64,000 nt of DNA from Escherichia phage vB_EcoM_ESCO47: the sequence record OM386662.1; one strand, 5' to 3'. A program made the translations under genes and the position numbers. Shown here in pieces: positions 19,268 through 52,956 of the stretch (the first letter of the stretch is position 1; every line of letters starts with the position of its first letter). The notes beneath the pieces were generated by a model, which had not been told where the DNA came from, searched no databases, and saw only the letters and a list, made by a program, of their open reading frames with translations.

Positions 19268-19293
19268 AGGAAGCACTAGTGCTTCCTTTTTTT
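19268..19293 (+). terminator. Rho-independent terminator
   Basis: AGGAAGCAC-TA-GTGCTTCCT then TTTTTT. Confidence 0.6.
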
Positions 19294-19317
19294 GCTTTCT
19301 ATACGGGATGATAGAAT
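19293..19317 (+). promoter_or_regulatory. MotA-box middle promoter upstream of gene 47
   Basis: TGCTTTC then 19 nt to TAGAAT; shares GGATGATAGAAT with the gene 39 promoter. Confidence 0.45.
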
Positions 19318-19341
19318 GAATTATCTTAATGAGGAAATGAT

Positions 19342-20361
19342 ATGAAAATTTTGCAATTAGGTGACTTCCATATCGGGGTCAAACAAGACGACCCATGGGT
19401 TCAAGATATTCAGCGTGACGGCATTCGACAAGCAATTGAGTATTCTAAGAAAAACGGAATTAACACATGGATTCAATATGGTGATTGGTTTGATGTCCGT
19501 AAAGCAATAACACATCGCACAATGGAATTTAACCGTGAACTGGTCAACATGATTACTAAAGCTGGTATTCGTGTCCATGTAACTATCGGGAATCATGACA
19601 TTGCGTTCAAGAATACAATAACACCAAATACGGTTTCTGAACTACTTACCCAATTTGAAAACTTTACAATCTATGAACATCCAACTACAGTAGATTTCGA
19701 CGGTTGTCTTATTGATATTATTCCATGGATGTGTGAAGAGAATACAGGCGAAATCTTAGAACATATCAAAACGAGTTCAGCCGCGTATTGTGTTGGGCAC
19801 TGGGAACTGAATGGCTTTTATTTCTATAAAGGAATGAAGTCTCATGGGCTTGAACCTGATTTCTTAAAGACTTATAAACAAGTCTGGTCCGGCCACTTCC
19901 ACACAATCTCTGAAGCTGCTAACGTCAAATATATTGGGACACCATGGACCCTTACTGCAGGTGATGAGAATGATCCTCGCGGATTCTGGGTATTTGACAC
20001 TGATGTTGAACGTATGGAATTTATTCCTAATGAAACAACATGGCATCGACGAATCACTTATCCGTTTAAAGGCAAAATCAATTATTCTGATTATACTAAT
20101 CTAGCCGTACGTGTTATAGTATCAGAAATTGATTCAGAGTTGACTAAGTTTGAATCTGAACTTGAAAAAGTAGTTCACTCTCTTCGTATGGTTTCTAAAG
20201 TTGATAACAGTGTTGAATCTGATGACGACCAGGAAATCGAGATTAAATCACTTCAAGATATCATTAAAGAATATATTGACGCGATTCCAGATATCTCGGA
20301 CGAAGACAGAGAAGCGCTGGTCAAATATTCCAACGAACTTTATATTGAGGCAACACAATGA
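19342..20361 (+). CDS. 47: Recombination nuclease subunit gp47 (Mre11-like)
   Basis: 339 aa; MKILQLGDFH, GNHD phosphoesterase motifs. Confidence 0.85.
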   Translation: MKILQLGDFHIGVKQDDPWVQDIQRDGIRQAIEYSKKNGINTWIQYGDWFDVRKAITHRTMEFNRELVNMITKAGIRVHVTIGNHDIAFKNTITPNTVSELLTQFENFTIYEHPTTVDFDGCLIDIIPWMCEENTGEILEHIKTSSAAYCVGHWELNGFYFYKGMKSHGLEPDFLKTYKQVWSGHFHTISEAANVKYIGTPWTLTAGDENDPRGFWVFDTDVERMEFIPNETTWHRRITYPFKGKINYSDYTNLAVRVIVSEIDSELTKFESELEKVVHSLRMVSKVDNSVESDDDQEIEIKSLQDIIKEYIDAIPDISDEDREALVKYSNELYIEATQ

Positions 20362-20615
20362 CTTTAGATGAATTTAACAATGCTGGACTCAGGCTTGAAG
20401 TTGAAATGGACGTTAAAGATGATGATGGATTCGAGAACACTATCAAGTATTGGATTGAGCCATTACGCGTTGAAGGCAATGAAGTTAAAGCAGTTCATGT
20501 CTGCACCGACTGGGCTATTGAATTTAGCTTTAATATAATGGACGACGATACTCCTGGCTCTATTCTTAAAATGGCTGAAGCATGTATCAAGGATGCGTAT
20601 AATGACGAAGACTGA
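20358..20615 (+). CDS. Hypothetical acidic protein
   Basis: 85-aa ORF, ATGA coupling. Confidence 0.45.
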   Translation: MTLDEFNNAGLRLEVEMDVKDDDGFENTIKYWIEPLRVEGNEVKAVHVCTDWAIEFSFNIMDDDTPGSILKMAEACIKDAYNDED

Positions 20616-20841
20616 TTATGAAATCCATCGTCATGAATTTAGTATTGATGACGGTTATATTGGTGTCGTTGAATGGACTGAGAATTACGAGGAGACAACT
20701 CCTCGTTTCTTTGGAACAATGTATGTTACCTGTGAGTACGCACCGGGTGTTGTTATGTATGCAGAACTAGATGAATATTTTGCTGATAGAGATGACATGT
20801 TAAAATATGTAGAGGACTTCATTCGAAGAGAATACATATGA
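20593..20841 (+). CDS. Hypothetical protein
   Basis: 82-aa ORF. Confidence 0.45.
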   Translation: MRIMTKTDYEIHRHEFSIDDGYIGVVEWTENYEETTPRFFGTMYVTCEYAPGVVMYAELDEYFADRDDMLKYVEDFIRREYI

Positions 20842-22526
20842 AATCATTTAAATTAAATCGTGTTCGTTATAAAAATATAATGTCTGTTGGGCAAAATTTT
20901 ATCGATATCCAATTAGATAAAGTCCAAAAGACCTTAATCACAGGTAAAAATGGTGGTGGTAAATCTACGATGTTAGAAGCCATCACTTTTGGACTTTTCG
21001 GCAAACCATTTCGTGATGTTAAGAAAGGACAAATCATTAATAGCACGAACAAGAAAGAGCTCTTAGTTGAGCTTTGGATGGAATTCGATGATAAAAAATA
21101 CTTCATCAAACGAGGTCAAAAGCCCAATATTTTCGAAATCTCCGTTGACGGTGTTCGTCTCGATGAATCTGCCAGCAGTCGTGACTTCCAAGAAGAATTT
21201 GAACGTAGCATCGGAATGTCCTATGCGTCTTTTAAACAAATCGTCGTTCTTGGTACAGCAGGGTATACCCCTTTCATGGCTCTTAGCACCCCAGCTCGTA
21301 GAAAACTTGTCGAAGACCTTTTAGAAGTCGGCACACTCGCTGAAATGGATAAAATCAATAAGTCTCAAGTTCGCGAACTTAATTCCCGGGGGCAAGTTCT
21401 CGATGCCAAGAAAGATGGTGTTATCCAACAAATTAAGATTTATAATGAGAATATCGAACGTCAAAAGAAATTATCCGGTGATAATGTAGCTCGTCTACAG
21501 AATATGTATGATGACCTGGCTAAAGAAGCTCGGTCATTAAAAGCAGAAATCGAAGAAGCTAATGAGCGACTACTTAATATCGTTCTTGACGAAGACCCTA
21601 CTGAGGCATTCAACAAGATAGGACAAGAAGCATTATTGATTAAATCTAAAATTGACTCATATAACAAAGTTATTAAGATGTATCATGACGGCGGTACATG
21701 TCCTACTTGTGCATCACAGTTGCACCAGGGTGATCCTATTGTCTCTAAGATTACCGATAAGCTTCATGAATGTAATCACTCATTCGAGCAACTTACCTGT
21801 CACAGAGATAATCTGAGTGTCCTAGTGGACGAATATAGAGCTAATGTTAAGACTAAACAGGACCTTGCATCTGATATTCGTACCAAGAAACAAGCAATGA
21901 TTGCCACTATTGATAAAGCTAAGAAAGTTAAAGCTGCAATAGAGCAAGCCTCAGCAGAATTTATCGACCATGCCGATGAGATAGCTTTGCTTCAAAAAGA
22001 ACTTGATAAAATCATTAAAACAAAATCGGATATCGTTCTTGAAAAATACCATCGTGGTATTATCACAGATATGTTAAAAGATTCTGGTATTAAAGGTGCT
22101 ATCATTAAAAAATATGTGCCTCTGTTCAACAAGCAGATTAACCATTACCTTAAAATCATGGAAGCTGATTACGTGTTTTCTATTGATGAAGAATTCAATG
22201 AATCTATAAAATCCCGTGGTCGTGAAGATTTTAGTTATGCTTCATTTAGCCAAGGTGAAAAAGCACGTATTGATATCGCTTTATTGTTCACATGGCGAGA
22301 TATTGCTGAAAAGGTTTCTGGTGTTAGAATCAATACATTAATTATGGACGAAGTCATGGATTCCGCGACTGATTCTGAAGGTATTAAAGCTATTTCAACA
22401 ATTCTTAACTCTCTAACCGATGCAAACGTGTTTATAATTAGTCACAGAGACCATGACCCACAAGCTTATGGACAACATCTTCAAATGAGCAAAGTTGGAC
22501 GATTTACTGTAATGAAAGCCTCTTAA
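20838..22526 (+). CDS. 46: Recombination ATPase gp46 (Rad50/SbcC-like)
   Basis: 562 aa; Walker A GKNGGGKST, CPTC zinc hook, C-terminal LIMDEV Walker B. Confidence 0.9.
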   Translation: MKSFKLNRVRYKNIMSVGQNFIDIQLDKVQKTLITGKNGGGKSTMLEAITFGLFGKPFRDVKKGQIINSTNKKELLVELWMEFDDKKYFIKRGQKPNIFEISVDGVRLDESASSRDFQEEFERSIGMSYASFKQIVVLGTAGYTPFMALSTPARRKLVEDLLEVGTLAEMDKINKSQVRELNSRGQVLDAKKDGVIQQIKIYNENIERQKKLSGDNVARLQNMYDDLAKEARSLKAEIEEANERLLNIVLDEDPTEAFNKIGQEALLIKSKIDSYNKVIKMYHDGGTCPTCASQLHQGDPIVSKITDKLHECNHSFEQLTCHRDNLSVLVDEYRANVKTKQDLASDIRTKKQAMIATIDKAKKVKAAIEQASAEFIDHADEIALLQKELDKIIKTKSDIVLEKYHRGIITDMLKDSGIKGAIIKKYVPLFNKQINHYLKIMEADYVFSIDEEFNESIKSRGREDFSYASFSQGEKARIDIALLFTWRDIAEKVSGVRINTLIMDEVMDSATDSEGIKAISTILNSLTDANVFIISHRDHDPQAYGQHLQMSKVGRFTVMKAS

Positions 22527-23239
22527 TGAGGCTTATGTTTACAGTTATCAAAATGCCAACGATGCATATTAGCAGGGATCCCTATTTTATCGCAATGAGG
22601 ACATTTAATTTTCTTGTCCTCTTTTTTCTTTCTGTTAGGATTTGATTTACAGAATTTTATATGCGGCTTTAACGCCGATAACTTAGTAGTTAAGCCACAA
22701 AACGGGCAAGAATCTTCTTTCCAAATTTTCGTGGCCATGGTTTTAATTATTTTATCCTTTGTTTCTTGATCAAGTTTTACTATTTTAGGCGTAGGGCCTT
22801 GTTTACAGTTATCAAAATGCCAACGTCTCATGTTTCCTTCAGTGCCAGTTAAACCGCAGTGTGGACATGTAATCTTTGGTTTATTTTTTGCAGACTCGGA
22901 CATTTTCTTACGAGTTTCAGCAGTGAATTCTTTGTTCTTTTGAACTTCTTGATTCTTACGTCGAAGCCATCCAAATAATTTGTTTTTGCTTCTATCTGCT
23001 TTAGGAGATGAGATAGTCATCATACGAGCAGCATATATTAAAGAGGCATTATCTGGATGGATTTTTACTAGCAGTTGATGTGCCAAATAATGTTCTTCTG
23101 GTGTTAAATCTACTAAGTTTAAAGCATCATCACTTCCACCTAAACATTGTGGTATAATGTAATGACGTTCTGTATAACCATCTAAACTTCTTGATTTAGC
23201 ATTGGTGATAAGCTTTTCGTATATTGAGTTATAATTCAT
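22523..23239 (-). CDS. Free-standing HNH homing endonuclease with three C-terminal zinc-finger-like repeats
   Basis: HYIIPQCLGGSDDALNLVDLTPEEHYLAHQL HNH motif; three CP(H/F)CG...H(F/I)...CK repeats; only sizeable minus-strand gene in the block. Confidence 0.65.
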   Translation of the reverse strand: MNYNSIYEKLITNAKSRSLDGYTERHYIIPQCLGGSDDALNLVDLTPEEHYLAHQLLVKIHPDNASLIYAARMMTISSPKADRSKNKLFGWLRRKNQEVQKNKEFTAETRKKMSESAKNKPKITCPHCGLTGTEGNMRRWHFDNCKQGPTPKIVKLDQETKDKIIKTMATKIWKEDSCPFCGLTTKLSALKPHIKFCKSNPNRKKKEDKKIKCPHCDKIGIPANMHRWHFDNCKHKPH

Positions 23240-23293
23240 TTACTAAATCCTTATTTGATACAGCAACAGATAAATTGATAAACCTATTTATAT

Positions 23294-23318
23294 TGCTTTA
23301 AACACGGAGATTTATAAT
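23294..23318 (+). promoter_or_regulatory. MotA-box middle promoter upstream of rpbA/45
   Basis: TGCTTTA then 19 nt to TATAAT (23313-23318). Confidence 0.4.
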
Positions 23319-23508
23319 GGCTGAATTTTCAACCGGACAACAACTTCTAGCTGTTCCAGAAATTAAAAAATATGTTCTGACTAATACCTTTTCAGGTGAA
23401 GAACATATTGTTACTGAAGAAATGCTCAAAAATGCTTTTAAAAATGAGTATTATAAAATAATGTCTAATCGTTCAAATGCTTTTATTGTTAGCGACTACT
23501 ATGACTAA
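23317..23508 (+). CDS. Hypothetical protein (45.2 position)
   Basis: 63-aa ORF with GGAGA RBS; its ATG overlaps the predicted -10. Confidence 0.35.
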   Translation: MAEFSTGQQLLAVPEIKKYVLTNTFSGEEHIVTEEMLKNAFKNEYYKIMSNRSNAFIVSDYYD

Positions 23509-23521
23509 AGAGAGAAATAAT

Positions 23522-23938
23522 ATGTTTACTACTGCTAAAGGTTTTACTGCTGCTGATCTGAAAGTTACTTCTATTCGTACTGACGCTAACCCACATAACC
23601 GGAATCGTGTTCGTAAAGCATGGGTCCTGCATTGTGATGATGTAAGCGCTAAGAAACTTCAGTCTCTGCCACAAGAAATTAAATTCATGCTGTATGGTTT
23701 CATTGATAATGATGTTTCCGATAAGTGGATCGAACTAATGCGCAAACATCGTGAAAATGCTATCGCAGCTGGTGGTAAAATGATTCTAGATAAAGATGGT
23801 TCAGAACGATTGGAAGACTTCTATTGTGTAGACTCAAATGACCAACTTATTGCAGCCGGTGAAATTGTAGCTGCTAAGATTCCAGAATATATTGAAACAC
23901 TGCCTGAAGCTATTAAAAAGCAAATGGTTGCTGCATAA
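23522..23938 (+). CDS. rpbA: RNA polymerase-binding protein RpbA
   Basis: Position between 46 and 45 and size as in T4; start chosen at MFTTAKGF. Confidence 0.55.
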   Translation: MFTTAKGFTAADLKVTSIRTDANPHNRNRVRKAWVLHCDDVSAKKLQSLPQEIKFMLYGFIDNDVSDKWIELMRKHRENAIAAGGKMILDKDGSERLEDFYCVDSNDQLIAAGEIVAAKIPEYIETLPEAIKKQMVAA

Positions 23939-23987
23939 TATTTTTGATATAAAATAAACTTCTTGATTTGAATTGAAAGGAAATAAA

Positions 23988-24674
23988 ATGAAACTGACTA
24001 AAGACACCATCGCTATTCTTAAAAACTTTGCTTCCATTAACTCTGGTGTCATGCTTACTCCAGGTAAGTTTATTATGACTCGGGCTATTAACGGAACCAC
24101 ATATGCTGAAGCAACTATTACTGACGAAATTGATTTTGAAGTTGCTCTTTATGACCTTAACAGTTTTTTAAGTATTCTGAGTCTTGTTTCTGATGATGCA
24201 GAAATTTCTATGAATGAAGACGGTAATATTAAAATCGCCGACACTCGTTCTACTGTTTACTGGCCAGCCGCAGACAAGAGTACAATCGTATTCCCTAACA
24301 AACCAATTCAGTTCCCGGTAGCATCGGTTATCACTGAAATTAAAGCTGAAGACCTTCAGCAATTGCTTCGAGTTTCACGTGGACTCCAGATCGATACAAT
24401 TGCTATCACTAATAAAGATGGTAAAATCGTTGTAAATGGTTATAACAAAGTTGAAGACTCTGGTCTTACTCGTCCTAAGTATTCTTTGACTCTGACTGAT
24501 TATGATGGTTCTAATAACTTCAACTTTGTAATCAATATGGCTAACATGAAAATTCAACCAGGCAATTACAAAGTTATGCTCTGGGGAGCTGGTGATAAAG
24601 TTGCAGCCAAGTTCGAAAGCTCTCAAGTTAGTTATGTTATTGCAATGGAAGCTGATTCCACTCACGATTTCTAA
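23988..24674 (+). CDS. 45: Sliding clamp gp45
   Basis: 228 aa from MKLTKDT; same length as T4 gp45. Confidence 0.85.
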   Translation: MKLTKDTIAILKNFASINSGVMLTPGKFIMTRAINGTTYAEATITDEIDFEVALYDLNSFLSILSLVSDDAEISMNEDGNIKIADTRSTVYWPAADKSTIVFPNKPIQFPVASVITEIKAEDLQQLLRVSRGLQIDTIAITNKDGKIVVNGYNKVEDSGLTRPKYSLTLTDYDGSNNFNFVINMANMKIQPGNYKVMLWGAGDKVAAKFESSQVSYVIAMEADSTHDF

Positions 24675-24741
24675 GCTTTACGTTTAATATGTTATGATTT
24701 GGAGGAGAAATCCTCCACTTTTTGATAATGAGGAAAATTAT

Positions 24742-25704
24742 ATGATTACCATCAATTCCAAAGAACACATTCTAGAACAGAAATATCGTCCTTCTTCCAT
24801 TGACGAATGTATTCTGCCTGCGTATGACCATGAAACATTCAAGTCTTTAGTATCTAAAGGAAAACTTCCTCATATTATTTTGCACTCTCCTTCTCCTGGC
24901 ACAGGTAAAACAACCGTAGCAAAAGCATTATGTAATGATATCAATGCAGAAATGATGTTCGTCAACGGTTCTGATTGTAAGATTGATTTTGTGCGTGGCC
25001 CGTTAACTGCATTCGCTCGTTCAGTCTCAATGGAAGGCAAGCCTAAAGTTATTGTTATTGATGAATTTGACCGTAGTGGCCTCGCCGAATCACAACGTCA
25101 CCTTCGTACGTTTATGGAAGAATTCTCTAGTAACTGCTCTATTGTTATTACTGCTAACAACATCGATGGAATTATTGAACCATTACGTAGTCGTTGTCGA
25201 GTTATCGAATTCGGACGTCCAACCGAAGAAGATAAAATCTCAATGATGAAGAAAATGATTCATCGTATGGTTGAAATCTGTAAGAATGAAAATATCGAAA
25301 TCGCTGATATGAAAGTTGTTGCAGCTCTGGTTAAAAAGAACTTCCCGGACTTTCGTCGTACAATCGGTCAATTAGACCAGTACTCGTCTAAAGGTGTTCT
25401 TGATGCTGGTATTTTGTCTATCGTAACTAATGACCGTGGCACGGTCTCTGATGTTATCGAAGCAATGAAGAACAAAGATATCAAACAGCTTCGTGCATTA
25501 GCTCCAAAATACGCTGCAGATTATTCATGGTTCATCGATAAATTAGTTTCAGAATGTTATGACCAAGTTGCACCTGGTAAAAGTATTATTTCGCTTTATG
25601 AAATCGCAGGCGAAAATAATAAGTTTCATGGATTAGCAAGTAATATTGAATTACATGTTATGTATATGCTTCTTCAACTGACCTGTGAACTGACTTGGAA
25701 ATAA
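24742..25704 (+). CDS. 44: Clamp-loader large subunit gp44
   Basis: 320 aa from MITINSKE; Walker [18 protein letters not shown] motif. Confidence 0.85.
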
Positions 25705-25705
25705 T

Positions 25706-26269
25706 ATGAACTTATTCGATGATGACGTCCGGCTTAACGAGCACCAAATTGCATGGAAGTCTAATGACGCTGATGCGATTCAAAAATGTGCTGATATGTT
25801 TAAAGAAAAACCTGAGAATGAATTCTTTAAAATCATTAATGCTATTAATGAAAAGAAATCTATGTCAATTGCTCAGGTCGACTACTCAAAATTTATGGTT
25901 GAGAACTCATTATCCCAGTTCCCAGAATGTATGCCAGCTGTTTACATGATGAACTTAGTCGGTTCTGAATTAAGTGATGAAGCGCACTTCAACTATATGA
26001 TGGCGGCAATTCCGCGCGGTCGTCGATTCTCTAAATGGGCTAAACTAGTCGAAGACACTTCAGAGTTACTAGTTATCAAACTGTTGATGAAACATTACAC
26101 AATCAACATGAATGATGCTACAGAGTATAAGCGGCTCCTTGAAAAAAATAACAAGTTGCCAATAGTCCTTAAAGAACTGAAGGCCATGGTCACTGATGAA
26201 TTTCTCAAAGAAGTTACCAAAAACGTGAAAGAACAAAAACAATTTAAAAAAATAGCATTGGAATGGTAA
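25706..26269 (+). CDS. 62: Clamp-loader small subunit gp62
   Basis: 187 aa, same as T4 gp62; immediately downstream of 44. Confidence 0.8.
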
Positions 26270-26271
26270 AA

Positions 26272-26640
26272 ATGATTGAAATTAAATTGAAGAACCCTGA
26301 AGATTTTCTGAAAGTCAAAGAGACTTTGACCCGTATGGGCATCGCTAATAACAAGGATAAAGTCCTTTACCAGTCTTGTCATATCCTCCAAAAGCAAGGT
26401 AAGTATTATATCGTCCACTTTAAAGAAATGTTGCGTATGGATGGACGTCAGGTTGATATTGACGGTGAAGACTATCAGCGACGTGATTCGATTGCCCAGT
26501 TGCTTGAAGACTGGGGATTGATTGTTATTGAAGACTCTGCTCGTGAAGATCTATTTAGCCTGACTAATAACTTCCGAGTTATCTCTTTTAAACAGAAAGA
26601 TGACTGGACTTTGAAAGCAAAATATACAATTGGTAATTAA
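26272..26640 (+). CDS. regA: Translational repressor RegA
   Basis: 122 aa from MIEIKLKNPEDFLKVKETLTRMGIANNKD, closely matching T4 RegA as I recall it. Confidence 0.85.
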   Translation: MIEIKLKNPEDFLKVKETLTRMGIANNKDKVLYQSCHILQKQGKYYIVHFKEMLRMDGRQVDIDGEDYQRRDSIAQLLEDWGLIVIEDSAREDLFSLTNNFRVISFKQKDDWTLKAKYTIGN

Positions 26641-26645
26641 AGCAA

Positions 26646-26664
26646 TGGGACTTCGGTCCCATTT
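26646..26664 (+). terminator. Rho-independent terminator with TTCG tetraloop
   Basis: TGGGAC-TTCG-GTCCCA then TTT. Confidence 0.55.
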
Positions 26665-26722
26665 GGAGTATAATGTCTATAACAACAAACAAAGACAATA
26701 ACTCGTCTATAAAGGAAAAATA

Positions 26723-30108: not shown

Positions 30109-30251
30109 TGAAAGCAATAGCAATAGGACTTTTACTATTGATGCTTGTTATGACTATCTACTGGAGCTTAACTGCTCCAGTAATGGTTCCGACTCTTATA
30201 ATCGGATGGATTATGATTGGACTACAAGCAAAGTATGAATGCTTTAACTAG
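30108..30251 (+). CDS. Small membrane ORF (47 aa)
   Basis: TAATG coupling to SIS gene; two hydrophobic segments; below ORF-track cutoff. Confidence 0.3.
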   Translation: MKAIAIGLLLLMLVMTIYWSLTAPVMVPTLIIGWIMIGLQAKYECFN

Positions 30252-36026: not shown

Positions 36027-36047
36027 GAGCCTATTTAAAGTTTAAAA

Positions 36048-36072
36048 TGCTGTATAACCTGTAGTATATAAT
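36048..36072 (+). promoter_or_regulatory. MotA-box middle promoter upstream of uvsX
   Basis: TGCTGTA then 19 nt to TATAAT. Confidence 0.45.
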
Positions 36073-40781: not shown

Positions 40782-41432
40782 ATGATTTATTATATGCACA
40801 AAAATGCGCCATTTAAATATGGTAAATTTCCTAATGCACAATGTTATAATATAACGCCGAATGAAAATAATAACGGATATCATCTCGGTGTAATTTTTGT
40901 AATTGTTAAAGATAACGAAATCGTCGCCTGGGCGGATTTTAAAGGTACAACATATGATGTTAATCCTGTGCCTTTCACATATTACAATATAACGGATTTG
41001 GCATATGATTATAATTGGTTTAATCATGACACGTTGGCTCATATTGAAGGTGTAGGATTTGACATCTCTTATTCTAGCTATTCATTATGTCCTATGAGCC
41101 GAGCTCACGGTAAAGATGCATCATATCTTTCAATTCGTAAACGTGTAAACTTCAAACGTAGTACAGATTATGTTGGTGGTCTCTTTGTTAAAGATAATAA
41201 AATAACCCGTATTAGTTATCCTTTAAGTGTAGGTCAAAAAGATGTTGATGTTGATTTAGACTTAACTGAAAATAACATTAATCGTATTGCTTCTGTATAT
41301 TTTGATATCGATGAAAAAATTGTAGTGTGTGGATACGAATTACCACCTGAAGAAAAGGCTGAAGCAATTGAAGTCGAATTAGAAATTTCTGTTGATGACC
41401 AAATATTTAATGCATTTATGAATCGAGGTTAA
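40782..41432 (+). CDS. Hypothetical protein
   Basis: ORF-track start 40773 is GTG; ATG 40782 follows upstream stop. Confidence 0.45.
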   Translation: MIYYMHKNAPFKYGKFPNAQCYNITPNENNNGYHLGVIFVIVKDNEIVAWADFKGTTYDVNPVPFTYYNITDLAYDYNWFNHDTLAHIEGVGFDISYSSYSLCPMSRAHGKDASYLSIRKRVNFKRSTDYVGGLFVKDNKITRISYPLSVGQKDVDVDLDLTENNINRIASVYFDIDEKIVVCGYELPPEEKAEAIEVELEISVDDQIFNAFMNRG

Positions 41433-41433
41433 A

Positions 41434-41631
41434 ATGGCTACTGCAATTTGCACTGGTTCTAAAATTAGTGTTTTTACAAGTTTTGAAGATTATGAAGTTG
41501 TTTCAAAACACCAATGCCATATTAGCGTAAAAGCTAATGACGGTGTAATTTGGAATATTCCACAGTATGAAGGCACTACATATGAAGTCACAGATATAAA
41601 TGGTGACAAAGCAATCTTTGTAATTGATTAA
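41434..41631 (+). CDS. Hypothetical small protein
   Basis: 65-aa ORF. Confidence 0.4.
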   Translation: MATAICTGSKISVFTSFEDYEVVSKHQCHISVKANDGVIWNIPQYEGTTYEVTDINGDKAIFVID

Positions 41632-43570: not shown

Positions 43571-43658
43571 AAATCCTCCTACGTTATAGGTTTATTTATG
43601 CTTTTTATCAGGTTTGGTATAATTAACATCTCTTAAACATGAATTGAAAGGAAATAAA

Positions 43659-44470: not shown

Positions 44471-44480
44471 GTTAATTATA

Positions 44481-44505: not shown

Positions 44506-44515
44506 CGTTTCTACA

Positions 44516-44545
44516 GTTTACATCCTTGTAAAACAGTGTTATAGT
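44516..44545 (+). promoter_or_regulatory. T4-type early promoter
   Basis: GTTTAC, 18-nt spacer, TATAGT, AGTCCTATCAA box, GAGGAG RBS. Confidence 0.55.
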
Positions 44546-44573
44546 AGTCCTATCAAAACAAGAGGAGAACACT

Positions 44574-45309: not shown

Positions 45310-45455
45310 CGTGTACCAAAGAAGCTGAAGCCAGAGCAAAGGAAGCTTTAGATTTGCTTCTCAAAATCGGTAGTAAAATGATGGAAGAGAACGAAAAATA
45401 CATCCAAGAAAATAAAACTCCGGATGGTCCATTAGTTGGTAAGAGGAAATCATAA
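45306..45455 (+). CDS. Small ORF (49 aa)
   Basis: ATGA coupling on both sides. Confidence 0.3.
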
Positions 45456-45853
45456 TGAAAGCTAATTTATACCACATACATATCGACGGTCAAAAATTCC
45501 CTATTGAAGTATTGATCCCTAGTGAGTGGTCAGCGTATAACACTGAAATGTACCGGCGCATTGAAGAACAGTTTTTAACGAGTATTTCTCCTAAAGGTTA
45601 CGAAGTAGAAATCCGACTGGCCGGTGAATTCCACTATGACCCATCTTCGCCATTTGACGTAAGTGAAATCATCATTAATAAAGGATTCGTTAGTCCTGGC
45701 AATAGTTCGTCTCTTTATGGTTACATAAACGATATCATTATCTGCGGAAATAAATTCAGTATATTCCATGAAGAAGACTTGAGAGAGTTCAAAAAGTTGG
45801 TATGGAACTACTTCGGTGAAACCGGGTTTAATTTTATTAAGGCGCCTAAATGA
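45455..45853 (+). CDS. Hypothetical protein
   Basis: 132-aa ORF. Confidence 0.4.
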   Translation: MKANLYHIHIDGQKFPIEVLIPSEWSAYNTEMYRRIEEQFLTSISPKGYEVEIRLAGEFHYDPSSPFDVSEIIINKGFVSPGNSSSLYGYINDIIICGNKFSIFHEEDLREFKKLVWNYFGETGFNFIKAPK

Positions 45854-46332
45854 TGGCTAAAATACTCGAATTAGAATTTTATATTCGTGATAACCGTGGC
45901 CAAACTCGTCCTTATGATGACACAGTTTGCGTTATCTTAGTACCATCTGACACTAGTAACAGTTCATCTGAAAGCCTCGAAAAGGCTATTAATAGTATGG
46001 CTCTTCCTGAAAACGTTATGCTTAAAATAAAGCATAATAAAAATGTTGAGATGCAACCAGGTAGCCCATTTACAGTAGTAGAAGCATTGCTGATTAAAGG
46101 TTATAGTTATCCTAACAACAGATCAGAAGGCGAGAACTCTAAAGAAATTTTCTTTACAACTCCTGATAAAGACTGTCTCGAAGGACGAAGCTATCTTGTA
46201 GGAAGCACTTCTGACGTACTCGAAATCCAACGTCAGATCTGGACGCATTTTGATATCGGACTTCGCTTTACGTTAACAGAGTCAGCCCTTCTAGAACAAT
46301 CTCTTCGTCGACGCATGTACGGTGGTTTCTAA
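45850..46332 (+). CDS. Hypothetical protein
   Basis: 160-aa ORF. Confidence 0.4.
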   Translation: MMAKILELEFYIRDNRGQTRPYDDTVCVILVPSDTSNSSSESLEKAINSMALPENVMLKIKHNKNVEMQPGSPFTVVEALLIKGYSYPNNRSEGENSKEIFFTTPDKDCLEGRSYLVGSTSDVLEIQRQIWTHFDIGLRFTLTESALLEQSLRRRMYGGF

Positions 46333-46511
46333 TGGATTTAATGAGCATGTTTGATGAGCCTGAAGTTGAGGCTCCTAAAGCACAACGTGGAGAACTCGTT
46401 GACGAACTGGACATTATTATACAGCGTCACGGGTTTAATCTTCCTATAGAAGTCCTGAAAGACCTAGCGTCTTACTACGATGATCCACCTCCTTGGGCCC
46501 CTTGGTCATAA
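46332..46511 (+). CDS. Small acidic ORF (59 aa)
   Basis: TAATG coupling; below ORF-track cutoff. Confidence 0.3.
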   Translation: MDLMSMFDEPEVEAPKAQRGELVDELDIIIQRHGFNLPIEVLKDLASYYDDPPPWAPWS

Positions 46512-46596
46512 CAGTTATCCCTCCTTAACGACGTGGTATCCAACTATCACGTCGCCTCTTAGAGTATACATCACTCACAATTTAGCCGAATTTTTA

Positions 46597-46626
46597 GTGT
46601 ACATCCTTAAAGAACAGTGTTACTAT
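46597..46626 (+). promoter_or_regulatory. T4-type early promoter
   Basis: GTGTAC, 18-nt spacer, TACTAT, TCTCCTATCAA box. Confidence 0.5.
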
Positions 46627-46654
46627 TCTCCTATCAACTTCAGGAGAAATCAAA

Positions 46655-47266
46655 ATGTTTTTACCTTATAATGAATGTGAAATTGAAGAAATGGTTCGCC
46701 GAGCACAAGACCCTGTGTTCCAAGAAGACCTGCAATACAAAATTGATGAAGTGTTCAGTGATTCTGAGCAGAGCACTCTTTGGCAGTGCATGGAAAATAA
46801 ACCGGATTGCATTCAACAAGAGTTGGATTCAATCATTCGTAAAAATTGGTCATCTTCTGTGCCAACGGTCCTTTATCGTGGAATTTCTAAGAAAACTCTA
46901 AAAATGTTAGATTCTGTAGGATGTGTAGGAGCTACTATCAAGTTTGACCGAGTAATGAGCTTTAGTTCAGTATTTGGTGTAGCACGTAATTTTGCTTCAC
47001 ACAATTTTTATGGAACTAAACAAATATTCTGTGTTAAGAATGCTCCATTCGCTTTTAACTTCAGAGAAACAATGCTTGACATGATTTTGGCTGCGCCATC
47101 TTGCGAGTTCAGCGGAGCTTTCCCTGAAGCGACTAGACGGTCTAATGTTCGTTTAGTATCTGATGAGTGTGAATTTATGTTCCCGATCGGGACTACACTA
47201 CGTGTAGATTCTGTTACTGAAGAAGGAACTTATCGGATATGGAATCTGTCTATTATCGGTTACTGA
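46655..47266 (+). CDS. ADP-ribosyltransferase, ModA/ModB-like
   Basis: 203 aa; LYRG (Arg motif), FSS, and ECEFMF (ExE) in the order expected for R-S-E ADP-ribosyltransferases; mod position. Confidence 0.55.
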   Translation: MFLPYNECEIEEMVRRAQDPVFQEDLQYKIDEVFSDSEQSTLWQCMENKPDCIQQELDSIIRKNWSSSVPTVLYRGISKKTLKMLDSVGCVGATIKFDRVMSFSSVFGVARNFASHNFYGTKQIFCVKNAPFAFNFRETMLDMILAAPSCEFSGAFPEATRRSNVRLVSDECEFMFPIGTTLRVDSVTEEGTYRIWNLSIIGY

Positions 47267-47339
47267 CCGGATTGGAATAACCGGAAGGAACTCAGAACCA
47301 TTATAATACATAAATTTTTAAAGCATTTTACGAAAAAGA

Positions 47340-47368
47340 GTGTACAATACCTGAGAACATGATACTAC
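47340..47368 (+). promoter_or_regulatory. T4-type early promoter
   Basis: GTGTAC, 17-nt spacer, TACTAC, AGACTTATCAG box. Confidence 0.4.
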
Positions 47369-47417
47369 AGACTTATCAGCTAAATGCCCCAACGTCCGTA
47401 AGACGGAAGAAAATATT

Positions 47418-48170
47418 ATGAAATTATCAAACATCCAAATCAAGAAAATCGAACGTCGTTTAGATCACACCAGAGCTTCTGCAAAGAGGCGCTCTAAGGA
47501 TTTTAACTTAGACTTTAATTACCTTAAAAACATTCTTGATCAAAAGGTCTGCGCTTACTCAGGTGAAACCTTTGATAACAAGGTTGAAGGTGAGAAATTA
47601 TCCTTAGAACGTTTTAATAACGATATCGGTTACATTAAAGGTAACGTTATTCCTGTCAAGAAAAAATATAACGCAGCACGTTCAGATTTTACTTTAGCCG
47701 AACTCATCGAGAAACGTGAAATAATCGCTGGACGTATCGCTACTCCTAGCGCAAAGAAAGTTGAAAAGCTTAATCTCGATGAAAAGAAATGGGCTGAAAT
47801 CAAACACACTTATACACAAATTAAAAATATCCAAAACAAACGTAAGAGCCGTATCGATCATATTGAAAAAATGACTAAAGGTAAAAGCACCTTATCTAAA
47901 GAAGACCAATTAAAAGTTGTCGGATTAAAAGCCCGCATCGATGGTTCCAGAGTTGCCGAAGGACGTGAAGTAACAAAGTTAAATGTTCTTCTTAAAGGTT
48001 CTGATTGGAAAACTAAAACCAAGTTATCCGACGCAGAAACGCTTTTTGATACATATGATAAAGTTATCCAAGGATTACAACGTTTCGAAAAGATTGGTTT
48101 CATCGGTAAATTAAAATTGAAACGTGGTTTACCACTTAACACTTCTATCTTTAAATTGATTAAAGGTTGA
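47418..48170 (+). CDS. Basic 250-aa protein in the T4 srd position
   Basis: Positional only; Lys/Arg-rich. Confidence 0.35.
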   Translation: MKLSNIQIKKIERRLDHTRASAKRRSKDFNLDFNYLKNILDQKVCAYSGETFDNKVEGEKLSLERFNNDIGYIKGNVIPVKKKYNAARSDFTLAELIEKREIIAGRIATPSAKKVEKLNLDEKKWAEIKHTYTQIKNIQNKRKSRIDHIEKMTKGKSTLSKEDQLKVVGLKARIDGSRVAEGREVTKLNVLLKGSDWKTKTKLSDAETLFDTYDKVIQGLQRFEKIGFIGKLKLKRGLPLNTSIFKLIKG

Positions 48171-48171
48171 T

Positions 48172-48483
48172 ATGATGTATTATGCTTATTCAATAGCTTA
48201 TCGGGATTTCGAAGGATTCGTCCAACCGGTTCAGCTAGACTCTGAAAAACCGGCAATATTTTTTAAAAAGGAAGTTGCTGACAAAGTTTTCGATTATATT
48301 AAAAAGGAATACAAACAGGCTTTACGCATGGGAAGAATGAAAATGGTGGTTACACCTCGTAAGTTTTGGTTTGATAAAGTCGAAATGAAACATATAAAAT
48401 TAGATGAGGAGACTGAAAAATTATACCGACGAATTCTTGAAACAGGACGAGTCATTCGTGTACAGGTGGCAGGATTATTATGA
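48172..48483 (+). CDS. Hypothetical protein (dda.1 position)
   Basis: 103-aa ORF, ATGA coupling to dda. Confidence 0.4.
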   Translation: MMYYAYSIAYRDFEGFVQPVQLDSEKPAIFFKKEVADKVFDYIKKEYKQALRMGRMKMVVTPRKFWFDKVEMKHIKLDEETEKLYRRILETGRVIRVQVAGLL

Positions 48484-49793
48484 AATTTGATGATTTGACG
48501 GACGGCCAGAAAAACGCCTTTAATGTTGTTATGAAGGCAATCAAAGAAAAGAAACACCATGTAACTATTAATGGTCCGGCTGGTACAGGTAAAACAACAC
48601 TCACACGGTTTATTGTTGAAGCTCTTATTTCAGCAGGTGAATCAGGTGTTATCTTAGCAGCCCCGACTCACGCCGCCAAAAAGGTTCTAAGTAAATTGGC
48701 CGGACAAGAAGCATCTACTATCCATAGTATTCTTAAAATCAACCCAACAACATACGAAGAAAACGTGTTATTTGAACAGAAACAGGCTCCTGATCTGGCA
48801 CTATGTCGAGTATTAGTGTTTGATGAAGCATCGATGTGTGATCGAAAACTTTTCCAGATTATGTTGGCAAGTATTCCAAAATGGTGTACAGTAATTGGCG
48901 TAGGTGACAGATGTCAGATTCGTCCTGTTGACCCAGGTGAAACAACAGCATATTTGAGCCCATTCTTTACGCATAAAGATTTTGTCCAATGTGACCTTAC
49001 AGAAGTCAAACGTAGTAATGCACCAATTATTGATGTTGCTACCGATATTCGTAATGGTAAATGGATTTATGATAAAATTGTTGACGGACATGGCGTTCAT
49101 GGCTACACTGATTTAAAATCATATATGATGAACTATTTTAATATCGTCAAAACGCCGGAAGACCTTTTCGAAAATCGAATGATGGCCTTCACAAATAAAT
49201 CTGTGGATAAATTAAATTCTGTTATTCGACGTAAGCTTTATCAAACAGAAGCTCCATTTATTAAAGATGAAGTTATTGTCCTTCAAGAACCTGTCACCAA
49301 GTCGTATAAACTCGATGGCAAAAATATGACTGAAATGCTTTTCAATAATGGCCAATTCGTTCGTATTAGAGACGCAGTTGAAACGTCCACATTTGTTAAA
49401 GCAAAGGGTGTTCCAGGCGAATATATGATACGATACTGGAATCTTAGTATTGAAACCTACGGTGATGATGAAGAATATAACAGAGAAGATATAAAGGTTA
49501 TTTCTTCGGATGAAGAGCTTTACAAATTTAATCTATTTTTAGCAAAAACAGCTGAAACGTATAAGTTCTGGAATAAAGGCGGTAAAGCTCCTTGGAATGA
49601 TTTCTGGGATGCTAAGCGAATGTTCACAAAGGTTAAAGCCCTTCCGGTATCAACCTTCCATAAAGCACAAGGTATGTCTGTTGATACGGCCTTTGTTTAT
49701 ACACCGTGTATCCATTACGCTGATTCTGAATTAGCAAAACAACTTCTGTACGTCGGTGCCACTCGTGGACGATTTGACGTCCATTATATTTGA
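48480..49793 (+). CDS. dda: DNA helicase Dda (SF1)
   Basis: 437 aa; MKFDDLTDGQKNAFNVVMKAIKEKKHHVTINGPAGTGKTT matches my recollection of T4 Dda. Confidence 0.9.
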   Translation: MKFDDLTDGQKNAFNVVMKAIKEKKHHVTINGPAGTGKTTLTRFIVEALISAGESGVILAAPTHAAKKVLSKLAGQEASTIHSILKINPTTYEENVLFEQKQAPDLALCRVLVFDEASMCDRKLFQIMLASIPKWCTVIGVGDRCQIRPVDPGETTAYLSPFFTHKDFVQCDLTEVKRSNAPIIDVATDIRNGKWIYDKIVDGHGVHGYTDLKSYMMNYFNIVKTPEDLFENRMMAFTNKSVDKLNSVIRRKLYQTEAPFIKDEVIVLQEPVTKSYKLDGKNMTEMLFNNGQFVRIRDAVETSTFVKAKGVPGEYMIRYWNLSIETYGDDEEYNREDIKVISSDEELYKFNLFLAKTAETYKFWNKGGKAPWNDFWDAKRMFTKVKALPVSTFHKAQGMSVDTAFVYTPCIHYADSELAKQLLYVGATRGRFDVHYI

Positions 49794-49804
49794 TTGAGGA
49801 AATT

Positions 49805-50482
49805 ATGAATAATGATGTTATTATAGACTTTGAAACATTCGGTAATACGTCTAAAGCTGCGGTTATTGACCTTGCAGTTATTGCGTATAATTCCAACCCT
49901 GAAGTCGTAGAGACGTTTGAAGAACTCGTTCAACGTGGTAAACGAATTAAATTTAATCTTGCTTCACAGAAAGGAAAACGTGTTTTTGCTAAGACTACTA
50001 TGAAATGGTGGAAAGAGCAGTCAGATGAAGCTCGCAAAAACTTGGCACCAACTGAAGACGATGTTACCACTTTAGAGGGTATTAAAATCTTTTTGGACTA
50101 TTGCCGAGATAATAAAGTGGACCAATGGAAATCACAGATGTGGTGTCGTGGTATGAGCTTTGACTTTCCGATTCTGGTTGATTTAATTCGAGATCTTTAT
50201 CGTGACGAAGGTGTCCCAGAAGCAGAAATCGATACTGATAAACTTGAACCGGTTAAATTCTGGGCTCAACGTGACATCCGTACTGCAATTGAAGCTTACT
50301 CGTTGACGCGTGGATTAAGTATGTGTCCATTGCCAATGGGTACATTAAAAGGATTCGTTGCCCACGACAGTATTCATGATTGTGCTAAAGATATTTTGAT
50401 GTTAAAATATGCTCAACGTTATGCACTTGGACTTGAAGATGTGCCCGAGAATCCAGACCCATTAAGTGTAAAACAACGATAA
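49805..50482 (+). CDS. dexA: Exonuclease A (DEDD 3'-5' exonuclease)
   Basis: VIIDFETFGN exo I motif, HDSIHDCAKD exo III-like; position after dda. Confidence 0.7.
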   Translation: MNNDVIIDFETFGNTSKAAVIDLAVIAYNSNPEVVETFEELVQRGKRIKFNLASQKGKRVFAKTTMKWWKEQSDEARKNLAPTEDDVTTLEGIKIFLDYCRDNKVDQWKSQMWCRGMSFDFPILVDLIRDLYRDEGVPEAEIDTDKLEPVKFWAQRDIRTAIEAYSLTRGLSMCPLPMGTLKGFVAHDSIHDCAKDILMLKYAQRYALGLEDVPENPDPLSVKQR

Positions 50483-50486
50483 AACA

Positions 50487-50515
50487 GTTTACATCCTCTG
50501 TAGATATGTTATAAT
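50487..50515 (+). promoter_or_regulatory. T4-type early promoter
   Basis: GTTTAC, 17-nt spacer, TATAAT, TCTATCAACTACAGAGG box. Confidence 0.55.
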
Positions 50516-50556
50516 TCGTTCTATCAACTACAGAGGTAAGTAATACGATTACTGAT

Positions 50557-51048
50557 ATGGATCTAGCAAGTATGTACGGCACTCTTATTAAACCATTAAA
50601 AATTAAGGAACCAAAAATGGCTATCAAAATCGGCAAAACCTACAAACTGGTTGAACCTGAAATTAAAACTCCTGTACTGGTCGCTTCATATCATACTTTA
50701 AGCCTCCTTTTAGGTGATGAAGATTTCGAAATCGTATCTTTTAAAAGACATGTTTGGTTTGAAGGTTATGAAATAACGACTCGTCATCGTTCTTCAGGCC
50801 GAGTGGAAAATATTACTGTTTATACACACGAACTCGAGTTGTTTGAAGAATTGGTTCAAAAAGTTGTTGAAGACCCCACCGATCTTCTGTGTAAAGCAGT
50901 AAGCATTCGTCGTCCATTTGATAATCGTCGGATTTGTGGATGGGTAACTGATCAGTGGATTGAAGATGGTGTTGAGCTCTTGAACGTGGTCCATGATGGT
51001 GATTTTACTGTATGTCCACGTAGTGCAGTGGTTAATGTATTGAATTAA
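50557..51048 (+). CDS. Hypothetical protein in motB position (start may be ATG 50617)
   Basis: 163-aa ORF; positional. Confidence 0.4.
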   Translation: MDLASMYGTLIKPLKIKEPKMAIKIGKTYKLVEPEIKTPVLVASYHTLSLLLGDEDFEIVSFKRHVWFEGYEITTRHRSSGRVENITVYTHELELFEELVQKVVEDPTDLLCKAVSIRRPFDNRRICGWVTDQWIEDGVELLNVVHDGDFTVCPRSAVVNVLN

Positions 51049-51051
51049 TAG

Positions 51052-51080
51052 TTTTACTTCTCCTCTAGACATGATACTAT
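51052..51080 (+). promoter_or_regulatory. T4-type early promoter
   Basis: TTTTAC, 17-nt spacer, TACTAT, AACTTATCAACTAGAGGAG box. Confidence 0.45.
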
Positions 51081-51106
51081 AAACTTATCAACTAGAGGAG
51101 AATAAT

Positions 51107-51634
51107 ATGTTAGTTTATCGAGTAGAACGTAGTTTTTGTACCCAAAGAGAATATTTGCCTTCAGTCGGATACGAAAACGGTGAAATGGTTCGTACCTGGG
51201 AGATATCCTGGAATAAAGAACCACGCTCACCTTACGGATGGTCTGGCACCGACAACTCTGAAGAAACCTGGGAATTCCTTGATAAACACGGGATATTGTC
51301 AGGCAACTTCTATCATAACGACGGCAATATAAACGCCCCTAATCGTCCTACAATCAAAAATGATCACCTCTTATCAAAAAATATTTTAAAACAAAATAAC
51401 CTTGATTTCATAGACCAAATAGCTGATTGGTTAGAGACAGGTGAATTTTACTTTGCGTTTGATACGGTCGACACGGTGTACCGATGGTTTGATAACTCCG
51501 ATGACATAGAACTCTTGAAGGCTAAAGGTTACTACATCGCGGTCTATGATGCTCCTGACGTCATTTTAGGCGACTCTCAACTTTTGTTCAAACGTTCTTC
51601 GGCAGAACAAGTTGATTTTATTTTAATAAAATGA
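51107..51634 (+). CDS. Hypothetical protein
   Basis: 175-aa ORF. Confidence 0.45.
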   Translation: MLVYRVERSFCTQREYLPSVGYENGEMVRTWEISWNKEPRSPYGWSGTDNSEETWEFLDKHGILSGNFYHNDGNINAPNRPTIKNDHLLSKNILKQNNLDFIDQIADWLETGEFYFAFDTVDTVYRWFDNSDDIELLKAKGYYIAVYDAPDVILGDSQLLFKRSSAEQVDFILIK

Positions 51635-51663
51635 TGTACAAACTGATAGTATTTTGTTACTAT
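51635..51663 (+). promoter_or_regulatory. T4-type early promoter
   Basis: TGTACA, 17-nt spacer, TACTAT, AGACCTATCAA box, GAGGAG RBS. Confidence 0.5.
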
Positions 51664-51691
51664 AGACCTATCAAAACAAGAGGAGAACATT

Positions 51692-51886
51692 ATGAAAACT
51701 TTATTAACTCAAGATCAATTTGAAGATATCCTTTTCGACCCAGAATTAGTTGTTGTTCAAAAAGAAATTACTAGTGGTCTTGAACACCATTCTTACGTAT
51801 ACGTTTATGAAAATGACAAACCAGTTATGGTTGCAGTACGTCACATCACAGGCGAAGGCACAACTTACTGGAAGGAAGCAATCTAA
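51692..51886 (+). CDS. Hypothetical protein
   Basis: 64-aa ORF. Confidence 0.4.
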
Positions 51887-52308
51887 TGGCTATTAAATTT
51901 GAAGTTAACAAATGGTACCAATTTAAAGATAAACGTGCCCAAGAAGAGTTTATTAAAGACCACACTGATAATGGGATTTATGCACGACGTCTTGGCATGG
52001 AACCATTTAAAGTATTAGATGTTGACCATCTTGGTCGTCCTACTAAAATTGTGACATCTACTGGCATGGTTGGATACGCAACAGGCGGTGATATCCTTGA
52101 TGAAAACTTTATCTGGCTCTCCACGAATGAAGCAGAGTTCTTTGTCGAAGTTGGAAATCCATACCAGGCAGCTGAAGAACAAGAACATGAAGAGCAAGAA
52201 CCAATGCCAGAATTGACTGAGTTCCCTTTACTGAAAGTTACTATTGAAAATAATGAACAAGCATGGTCTTTGTATCAAATGTTGAAAGCTCACTTTAAGG
52301 AACAATAA
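51886..52308 (+). CDS. Hypothetical acidic protein
   Basis: 140-aa ORF, TAATG coupling. Confidence 0.45.
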
Positions 52309-52487
52309 TGCCGTTATACGACTATAAATGCCAATCTGAAGATTGTGGTCATGAATATGAAAAAATTAAAAGAATTTCTGAACGAGAAAACGATGTTTGC
52401 CCTGAATGTCATCGTCTGTCTACTCGTCGGGTTTCTGCTCCTAAACATGTGAACGGTGGTTTTTACGACTTACTTAAGAAGGATTGA
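52308..52487 (+). CDS. FmdB-like zinc-ribbon small protein (59 aa)
   Basis: [18 protein letters not shown]...CPECH; below ORF-track cutoff. Confidence 0.4.
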   Translation: MPLYDYKCQSEDCGHEYEKIKRISERENDVCPECHRLSTRRVSAPKHVNGGFYDLLKKD

Positions 52488-52489
52488 TT

Positions 52490-52915
52490 ATGGCTTTTAA
52501 AGGTTTTGAAGTTGGTAAGAAATATCGTATTATCAAAGGACAGGAAGATAATTTCTTGAGAATTCTTAATACGACTGGTAAACGTCTTAATACTAATCTG
52601 CATACTACTTTATTGTCCAAAGATTTTATTGTGGAAGAGATGATTGGTTATGGTGTTTCGATTATTGCTGTAGAAGCTGTAGGCGATTACGGCCGAACTA
52701 TTCATAGTATGCAAGGTGATATTCTGCTTTATGGTGCAGAATTTAAATTCTTTGAAGAAGTTCCGGAACCAGATACAGCTGTCGATTTCAAAAAAGGCTC
52801 TATAGAATTTGTTGATGGTTCGGTGATCGTATCAGGCGATGTGGTCATTACAGTTAAAAGTGAACAAGGGCGTTTGGCTGCAATTGATGCACTTCAGAAA
52901 ATTAAATTTAAATAA
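52490..52915 (+). CDS. Hypothetical protein
   Basis: ORF-track start 52484 is TTG; ATG 52490 more plausible. Confidence 0.45.
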   Translation: MAFKGFEVGKKYRIIKGQEDNFLRILNTTGKRLNTNLHTTLLSKDFIVEEMIGYGVSIIAVEAVGDYGRTIHSMQGDILLYGAEFKFFEEVPEPDTAVDFKKGSIEFVDGSVIVSGDVVITVKSEQGRLAAIDALQKIKFK

Positions 52916-52932
52916 GGGCTTCGGCCCTTTTT
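52915..52932 (+). terminator. Rho-independent terminator with TTCG tetraloop
   Basis: AGGGC-TTCG-GCCCT then TTTTT. Confidence 0.55.
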
Positions 52933-52956
52933 GCTTTAGATTTCGGATGATAGAAT
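52932..52956 (+). promoter_or_regulatory. MotA-box middle promoter upstream of gene 39
   Basis: TGCTTTA then 19 nt to TAGAAT; GGATGATAGAAT shared with the gene 47 promoter. Confidence 0.45.

Follow-up and report, generated by a model that had tools for sequence, protein, structure and literature searches.

Four putative middle promoters, one of which overlaps the start codon of gene 45.2, are the subject of this analysis of Escherichia phage vB_EcoM_ESCO47 (sequence record OM386662.1), from which a stretch of 64,000 nt, here called the window, was examined. A 5-kb query around the promoter sites is ~93–94% identical to phages of the genus Mosigvirus (RB69-like T-even phages), none of the records being identical to it, and judged by its sequence the source of the window is such a phage. 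Genes of replication and recombination make up the window, almost all of them on the plus strand and in an RB69-like order: 47, 46.2, 46.1, 46, 45.2, rpbA, 45, 44, 62, regA and 43, followed further on by uvsX, 40 and 41, then by 39(+60), rIIA and rIIB, and finally by 52 and motA. Gene 45.2 is annotated at the equivalent position in T4 and RB69, between gene 46 and rpbA; in the window a homing endonuclease gene is added after gene 46.

The four promoter sites, read directly off the sequence (Table 1), precede genes 47, 45.2/rpbA/45, uvsX and 39(+60) and are all on the coding strand. At each of them, around −30, at least nine of the ten positions of the MotA box (a/t)(a/t)(a/t)TGCTT(t/c)A are matched, and a −10 element TAnnnT close to the sigma70 consensus follows after 12 nt, within the 12 ± 1 bp typical of such promoters. 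The sequence-only reading from which this study started had placed TGCTT-type boxes exactly 19 nt upstream of the −10 hexamer at each of them. This distance, which counted from start to start comprises the 7-mer box and the canonical 12-nt spacer, holds at all four sites, whereas TGCTT itself holds at three, the uvsX box having a CTG core in place of CTT, a deviation also found in RB69; the spacing is fixed within the four sites but not across relatives, the spacer of the gene 47 promoter being 11 nt long in RB69. Transcription starts were predicted as the seventh nucleotide after the −10 element, a rule that held in 11 of 11 promoters extracted from the T4 record (AF158101). The resulting leaders at genes 47, uvsX and 39 range from 16 to 48 nt, and each contains a Shine-Dalgarno sequence.

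Table 1. Promoter sites, genes and other features of the window (positions are those of the 64,000-nt stretch; transcription starts are predictions)
Feature	Position	Strand	Sequence, matches and remarks	Predicted +1 and leader
Terminator-like hairpin and T-run, running into the gene 47 MotA box	19266–19289	+	10-bp stem, then TTTTTGC; −12.6 kcal/mol, z −4.1	
Putative gene 47 middle promoter	19290–19317	+	box TTTTGCTTTC, 9/10; TGCTTTC 19293–19299; 12-nt spacer with TGn; TAGAAT 19312–19317	~19324; 18-nt leader; gene 47 ATG 19342
Promoter-like site in gene 46	21988–22012	+	TGCTTCA-N12-TAAAAT; counterpart of T4 P46i(2) in position and sequence	
Stable hairpin spanning the overlapping stop codons of the convergent gene 46 and endonuclease gene	22506–22545		−17.6/−17.5 kcal/mol; z −5.9/−7.2	
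Cassette, 812 nt	22516–23327		replaces 73 nt of RB69-type junction; RB69 homology up to 22515 and again from 23328	
HNH (Mob-like) free-standing homing endonuclease gene, 238 aa	22523–23239	−	phrog_655, 2.7e-64; antiparallel to its neighbours	
Candidate second MotA-type promoter	23211–23235	+	AGCTTTT-N12-TATAAT; antisense within the first endonuclease codons	~23242; 75-nt leader including the 45.2 Shine-Dalgarno sequence and ATG
Late-promoter motif	23285–23292	−	TATAAATA; endonuclease ATG (23239) 46 nt downstream; MotA box back to back with it	
Putative P45.2-type middle promoter	23291–23319	+	box TATTGCTTTA, 10/10, 23291–23300; TGCTTTA 23294–23300; 12-nt spacer; TATAAT 23313–23318	A23325, 8 nt beyond the A of the 45.2 ATG, inside codon 3
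Gene 45.2, 63 aa, conserved T-even protein	23317–23508	+	PF17470, phrog_1045, synteny	
rpbA	23522–23938	+	Pfam Phage_RpbA, 6.6e-45	
Gene 45 (sliding clamp)	23988–24674	+	downstream beneficiary of the 23294 promoter, if used	
Putative uvsX middle promoter	36045–36072	+	box AAATGCTGTA, 9/10; TGCTGTA 36048–36054; 12-nt spacer; TATAAT 36067–36072	A36079; 48-nt leader; uvsX ATG 36127
Putative gene 39(+60) middle promoter with preceding hairpin	52916–52956	+	GGGCTTCGGCCC hairpin and T-run, then box TTTTGCTTTA, 10/10; TGCTTTA 52932–52938; 12-nt spacer with TGn; TAGAAT 52951–52956	A52963; 16-nt leader; gene 39(+60) ATG 52979
motA	63397–63999	+	cut by the window end after 201 codons	

The T4 middle-promoter consensus is given as (a/t)(a/t)(a/t)TGCTTtA, 12 ± 1 bp and TAtaaT, with TGn in about half of the promoters (PMC2988021), and the T4 promoters identified include P47, P46i(2), P45.2, PuvsX and P39 (Hinton 2010, PMC2988021, Table 1). 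All four window sites match mapped T4 promoters in position, namely P47, P45.2, PuvsX and P39, with which they share the box consensus, the 12-nt spacing, the sigma70 −10 element and the frequent TGn; the genes served and their order are also the same. The activator is encoded inside the window, the motA product matching Pfam MotA_activ (1.6e-39), MotCF (8.4e-8) and the T4 MotA chain 6k4y_M (E=5e-52). In RB69, Nolan et al. (2006, PMC1524935, Additional File 4) predicted 32 middle promoters. Of these, Pm:5538 is identical in sequence to the window site at 52932, Pm:24034 is near-identical to that at 36048 and likewise has a TGCTG box, and Pm:40046 is close to that at 19293, but with an 11-nt spacer and TAAAAT. 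Further RB69 predictions map into the window, including those at 30240, 33818, 35416, near 43599 and 58311. By sequence and map position, the four motifs are thus most probably the T4-type MotA-activated middle promoters expected in such a phage, as the sequence-only reading had proposed; this agrees with all the features that sequence can test, and would be ordinary biology. The kind of element was already known, and three of the four sites correspond to RB69 predictions (one identical, two near-identical). The window phage belongs to a different genus from T4 and its promoters are predicted ones, and the uvsX sites differ in placement: the window promoter lies 54 nt upstream of uvsX, while T4 PuvsX lies inside segA.

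Motifs of this kind are enriched over chance. For the pattern TGCTT-N14-TANNNT, 3.7 occurrences would be expected in the window; it is found 18 times, 16 of them on the coding strand. When the 10-position box and the −10 element were scored jointly and compared with shuffled sequences, the plus strand contained 13 sites with a box of at least 9/10 and a −10 of at least 5/6 (0.8 in shuffles). For a 10/10 box combined with a perfect −10 the expectation per strand is 0.01; the plus strand has one such site, at 23294. The four sites discussed here are a subset of roughly a dozen comparable sites in the window.

The site at 23294 differs from the other three in its relation to the downstream gene. 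Its spacer encloses the Shine-Dalgarno sequence GGAG (23306–23309), 7 nt upstream of the 45.2 ATG (23317–23319), and this ATG overlaps the final two bases of the −10 element TATAAT, an overlap pointed out before and confirmed here directly. Box, Shine-Dalgarno sequence and TATAATG are packed within 29 nt. As the predicted start at A23325 lies inside the gene, transcripts from this promoter would lack the Shine-Dalgarno sequence and the ATG of 45.2, and rpbA (ATG 23522) would be their first translatable gene. Gene 45.2 would accordingly be translated only from transcripts reading through from upstream, which agrees with the first of two alternatives posed earlier, that the frame is not translated from the 23294 promoter. 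Two ways around this conclusion were considered and rejected. An in-frame start downstream of the predicted transcription start is not available, there being no ATG, GTG or TTG before codon 36 and none with a Shine-Dalgarno sequence. Leaderless translation is inapplicable, since the ATG lies upstream of the predicted +1.

The second alternative of the same reading, that the frame at 23317–23508 might not be a gene at all, is refuted. The product matches Pfam Gp45_2 (PF17470) over the full length of the profile (positions 1–58 of 58; E=9.9e-26, 89.9 bits against a cut-off of 28) and phrog_1045 (2.5e-29). In eight of eight endonuclease-bearing sequences compared the frame is intact, the window allele differing by 33–35 nt, with a ratio of nonsynonymous to synonymous substitution rates (dN/dS) of about 0.2–0.3. 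By these matches the frame is a real gene, encoding gp45.2. At the protein level, the window allele differs at 14–15 of 63 residues from those of all other endonuclease-bearing Mosigviruses and of RB69. Its divergence beside a cassette junction that is ~94% identical points to recombination just downstream of the cassette. A search of IMG/VR with gp45.2 returned two loci, both with RB69-type alleles and lacking the endonuclease gene.

The unusual arrangement of the 45.2 start coincides with the edge of the 812-nt cassette. The 73 nt of RB69 sequence that it replaces comprise the last codons of gene 46, the P45.2 promoter, its leader and the first codons of 45.2. In RB69 the 45.2 promoter (Pm:36813, CGCTTTA-N12-TATAAT) has its −10 element 31 nt upstream of the ATG; it is not found in the window, which has the cassette version instead. 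The stretches between Shine-Dalgarno sequence and ATG in RB69 and T4 (AACAAC and AAAAAC) form no −10 element, whereas the corresponding cassette sequence, ATTTATA, does so at the right distance from the box. We attribute the overlap of −10 and ATG to this replacement of the RB69-type promoter, leader and ATG by the cassette. On its other side the junction directly adjoins the late-promoter motif, and this TATAAATA is the sole minus-strand copy in the 64-kb window and is invariant in eight phages.

In otherwise collinear genomes the endonuclease gene may be present or absent between the conserved neighbours. Of the 165 records that match the 5-kb query at 80% identity or more, 13 (11 distinct phages) have the junction, and with it the cassette; RB69 does not. 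The same 13 records are those covering at least 80% of the query, and the endonuclease open reading frame (ORF) is present in every one of them that was fetched. In eight aligned sequences the box, GGAG, TATAAT and ATG are invariant, variation before the ATG being confined to three spacer positions. Yersinia phage P8, Klebsiella phage Squirrel_ER27 and Cronobacter phage leE have homologous endonuclease genes at this site, likewise antiparallel to their neighbours; a box of the 23294 type is absent from these phages.

Such a rearrangement is reminiscent of the free-standing endonuclease genes of T4, whose insertions displace intergenic promoters and which may have promoters of the downstream genes embedded within them (Edgell, Gibb and Belfort 2010, PMC2988022). 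The T4 examples are segG/gene 32, segA/uvsX, segE, mobB and mobC, with segD alone antiparallel (PMC2988022). There, as in the window, the native promoter has been displaced and a substitute for the downstream essential genes travels with the cassette. The window endonuclease gene is antiparallel to its neighbours, as in T4 only segD is, and it differs from the T4 cases in that its own late-promoter motif and the middle promoter stand back to back on opposite strands and that the start codon of the following gene is fused to the replacement promoter. This compacted, cassette-borne junction of promoter and start codon is the sole new detail, and it is an instance of a known principle.

Fusion of a middle promoter to a start codon also has a precedent in T4. 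At T4 P47 and gene 47.1 a GCTTTA box, a GGAG in the spacer and TATAATG are arranged as at 23294, with the ATG overlapping the last two bases of the −10 element, and the mapped P47 start (36576) lies 8 nt inside ORF 47.1 (ATG 36584; AF158101 36576–36600). T4 47.1 is a hypothetical ORF with a predicted membrane product, while 45.2 belongs to a widely conserved family, and no homing endonuclease is associated with the T4 overlap, unlike that in the window. T4 P45.2 itself is arranged differently: its −10 element lies 17 nt upstream of the ATG and its mapped start 11 nt upstream, while the predicted start in the window is inside the gene. A further arrangement of this type is seen at window 41411–41436, where RB69 Pm:18031 has its counterpart in TGCATTT-N12-TAAAAT, the spacer of which contains GAGG. 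At this site (41411–41435) the −10 element overlaps the TAA stop of 61.2 as well as the ATG (41434) of a conserved 65-aa ORF (phrog_3249). Its function as a promoter is doubtful, as the box departs from the CTT core.

Transcripts that reach 45.2 from upstream could have several origins. The promoter-like site at 21988 inside gene 46 is nearly identical to T4 P46i(2), which reads TGCTTCAagaagaacttgaTAAAAT, and is a likely source of transcripts reading through into 45.2. No canonical terminator was found on the plus strand between 20706 and 23317. The stable hairpin at 22506–22545 has no U-tract on either strand and was not called a terminator; its outer stem consists of native gene 46 sequence paired with cassette sequence. 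Conservation of the candidate promoter at 23211–23235 extends to all endonuclease-bearing Mosigviruses and to Yersinia phage P8; the Klebsiella and Cronobacter homologues do not share it. It remains an unproven candidate, and its conservation is confounded by the coding constraint on the endonuclease N-terminus. Between rpbA and gene 45, the only sign of a separate P45 is an ambiguous TGCTGCA-N12-TATAAA, which was not counted, and none is predicted there in RB69. As there is no convincing separate promoter for gene 45, keeping a middle promoter at the 45.2 junction would be advantageous.

Of the possible explanations for these observations we favour, as a probable one, a combination of three elements: MotA-dependent middle promoters, a cassette that has replaced the 45.2 junction, and a gene 45.2 that is read only from read-through transcripts. 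At the four sites, sigma70 of E. coli would bind the −10 element while AsiA remodels its region 4, and the phage MotA protein, bound to the TGCTT box centred at −30, would stand in for the −35 contact. Transcription would then start 7 nt after the −10 element, at ~19324, 23325, 36079 and 52963. The 812-nt mobile cassette would have supplied the compact junction, with MotA box, spacer GGAG and TATAATG superimposed, and its minus-strand late-promoter motif probably drives the endonuclease gene. The 29-nt junction would thereby serve in two capacities. At the DNA level it would be a middle promoter for rpbA, gene 45 and whatever follows them; at the RNA level, in transcripts begun further upstream, it would provide 45.2 with its ribosome-binding site and start codon. 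Such upstream starts may lie at the gene 47 promoter, at the P46i(2)-like site (21988) and perhaps at the 23211 candidate, and read-through would run across the antisense endonuclease gene.

Several points weigh against this explanation. For Mosigvirus as a whole, MotA dependence and the 5' ends are deduced from motifs and from orthology with T4, and a literature search found no usable genome-wide maps of transcription start sites for T4 or Mosigvirus. At uvsX the box departs from the conserved CTT core, although single core changes in the MotA box are among those reported as tolerated (PMC2988021). The minus strand also lies above shuffled sequences (5 sites against 0.8, with a box of at least 9/10 and a −10 of at least 5/6), so that a background of matches that are non-functional or unexplained has to be reckoned with. 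As the endonuclease-bearing junctions are ~98% identical overall, the invariance of the motifs within them is weak evidence of selection. Finally, even though it lacks a U-tract, the hairpin at 22506–22545 could lower the read-through out of gene 46.

The strongest competitor, which we nevertheless regard as unlikely, is that the motif at 23294 is unused as a promoter and simply represents the ribosome-binding region of 45.2, so that 45.2, rpbA and 45 are transcribed from the 23211–23235 candidate or by read-through from further upstream. GGAG and ATG occupy the same relative positions in RB69 and T4, and the 23211 candidate has a perfect −10 at 12-nt spacing and is shared by Yersinia phage P8, which is without a 23294-type box. 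Moreover, T4 MotA is described as binding DNA weakly, so that a motif match is no proof of activity (PMC2988021). Against this stands the quality of the 23294 match, which combines a 10/10 box, 12-nt spacing and a 6/6 −10 element and is the best on the plus strand, at a frequency that chance would hardly produce in 64 kb. Between Shine-Dalgarno sequence and ATG, the cassette sequence alone, not that of RB69 or T4, provides a −10 element at the right distance from a box. The loss of 23294 would also remove the proximal middle promoter of the clamp gene, for which no clear separate promoter was found.

It is far less probable that the sites are ordinary sigma70 promoters of the early type, or chance matches in AT-rich sequence, and independent of MotA. 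The −10 elements are good, two of the sites have an extended −10 (TGn), and T4 PuvsX is reported to show some MotA-independent activity in vitro on unmodified DNA (PMC2988021). However, at 16–18 nt from the −10 elements the best match to TTGACA is 2/6 or worse at all four sites, the TTGCTT hexamer lies only 14 nt from the −10, and no sigma70-type promoter was called at 19293 or 23294. With no −35 better than 2/6, the four sites are not ordinary sigma70 promoters. Chance is opposed by the strong enrichment and strand bias of the motifs and by the conservation of the boxes at orthologous positions in RB69 and T4. The early-type promoter found upstream of motA (GTTTACA-N17-TATTAT) looks different.

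The suggestion that 23317–23508 is not a gene, which had in its favour the short length of the frame (63 aa) and a start codon within a promoter −10, can be set aside in view of the full-length family matches, the annotation in T4 and RB69, the dN/dS and the well-placed GGAG.

The promoters of genes 47 and 39 have a further property in common. The 12-mer GGATGATAGAAT occurs exactly twice in the window, once in each of them, and its presence in both had been noted earlier. It may reflect either common descent of terminator-promoter modules or convergence on TGn and the −10 element. Terminator-like hairpins directly adjoin middle-promoter elements at 19258–19300, 52905–52940 and 26640–26680, and those at 52916 and 26648 have UUCG-type loops. 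The same module is found in T4, where P39 and P47 have a hairpin of the GGGCTTCGGCCC type adjoining the box and P43 has it as well. Several −10 elements are followed by a G, which creates TAnnATG with short mini-ORFs (9 codons at 19316, 16 codons at 26673). MotA-type matches on the minus strand include those at 26644, 23911, 16840 and 16168, the first of which lies in the intergenic region between regA and 43.

At the end of the window, MotA shows far greater divergence from T4 in its C-terminal DNA-binding domain (MotCF 8e-8) than in its N-terminal domain (MotA_activ 2e-39). Within window 63290–63999, motA is preceded by a GGAGCCTTCGGGCTCC hairpin with a T-run and by the early-type promoter mentioned above. 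Judging by the T4 map, asiA presumably lies past the window end. An asiA orthologue has been reported in RB69 (PMC1524935).

A MotA-type promoter motif that matches the consensus perfectly, AAATGCTTTA-N13-TATAAT, is found on the minus strand at 47297–47325, in the intergenic region between modA and srd (47267–47417). It runs counter to all neighbouring genes and reads into modA from the 3' end of that gene. RB69 has the motif at the same place (predicted Pm:12081), and so has T4 (aaaaTGCTTTAaaactttcatggTATAAT, plus strand, at an estimated position of roughly 11.87–11.89 kb). The published T4 table contains no promoter near 11.9 kb among its entries up to about 66.7 kb (PMC2988021). Judged from the motif, it may drive a middle-mode antisense RNA.

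A more far-reaching view, which we put forward tentatively and hold to be somewhat less probable than its opposite, is that the cassette is more than a passenger. Its back-to-back late/MotA module would have rewired the host operon, depriving 45.2 of a middle promoter of its own and making it dependent on read-through, but leaving rpbA and gene 45, which encodes the clamp, under the control of MotA; to this would be added a possible second middle promoter at 23211 and the antisense promoter between modA and srd.

The findings are of little general importance; they extend the T4 middle-mode promoter grammar to another RB69-like phage. They do provide a clean, datable case in which an endonuclease insertion remodels the promoter, leader and start codon of a gene while the expression of the downstream essential genes is kept. 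For the annotation of T-even genomes they imply that a start codon buried in a −10 element is no evidence against a gene, the same layout being found at P47/47.1 in T4. If the predicted 5' end at 23325 is true, a phage that has the cassette and one that lacks it would make a natural pair for the question of what gp45.2 does once uncoupled from middle-mode transcription.

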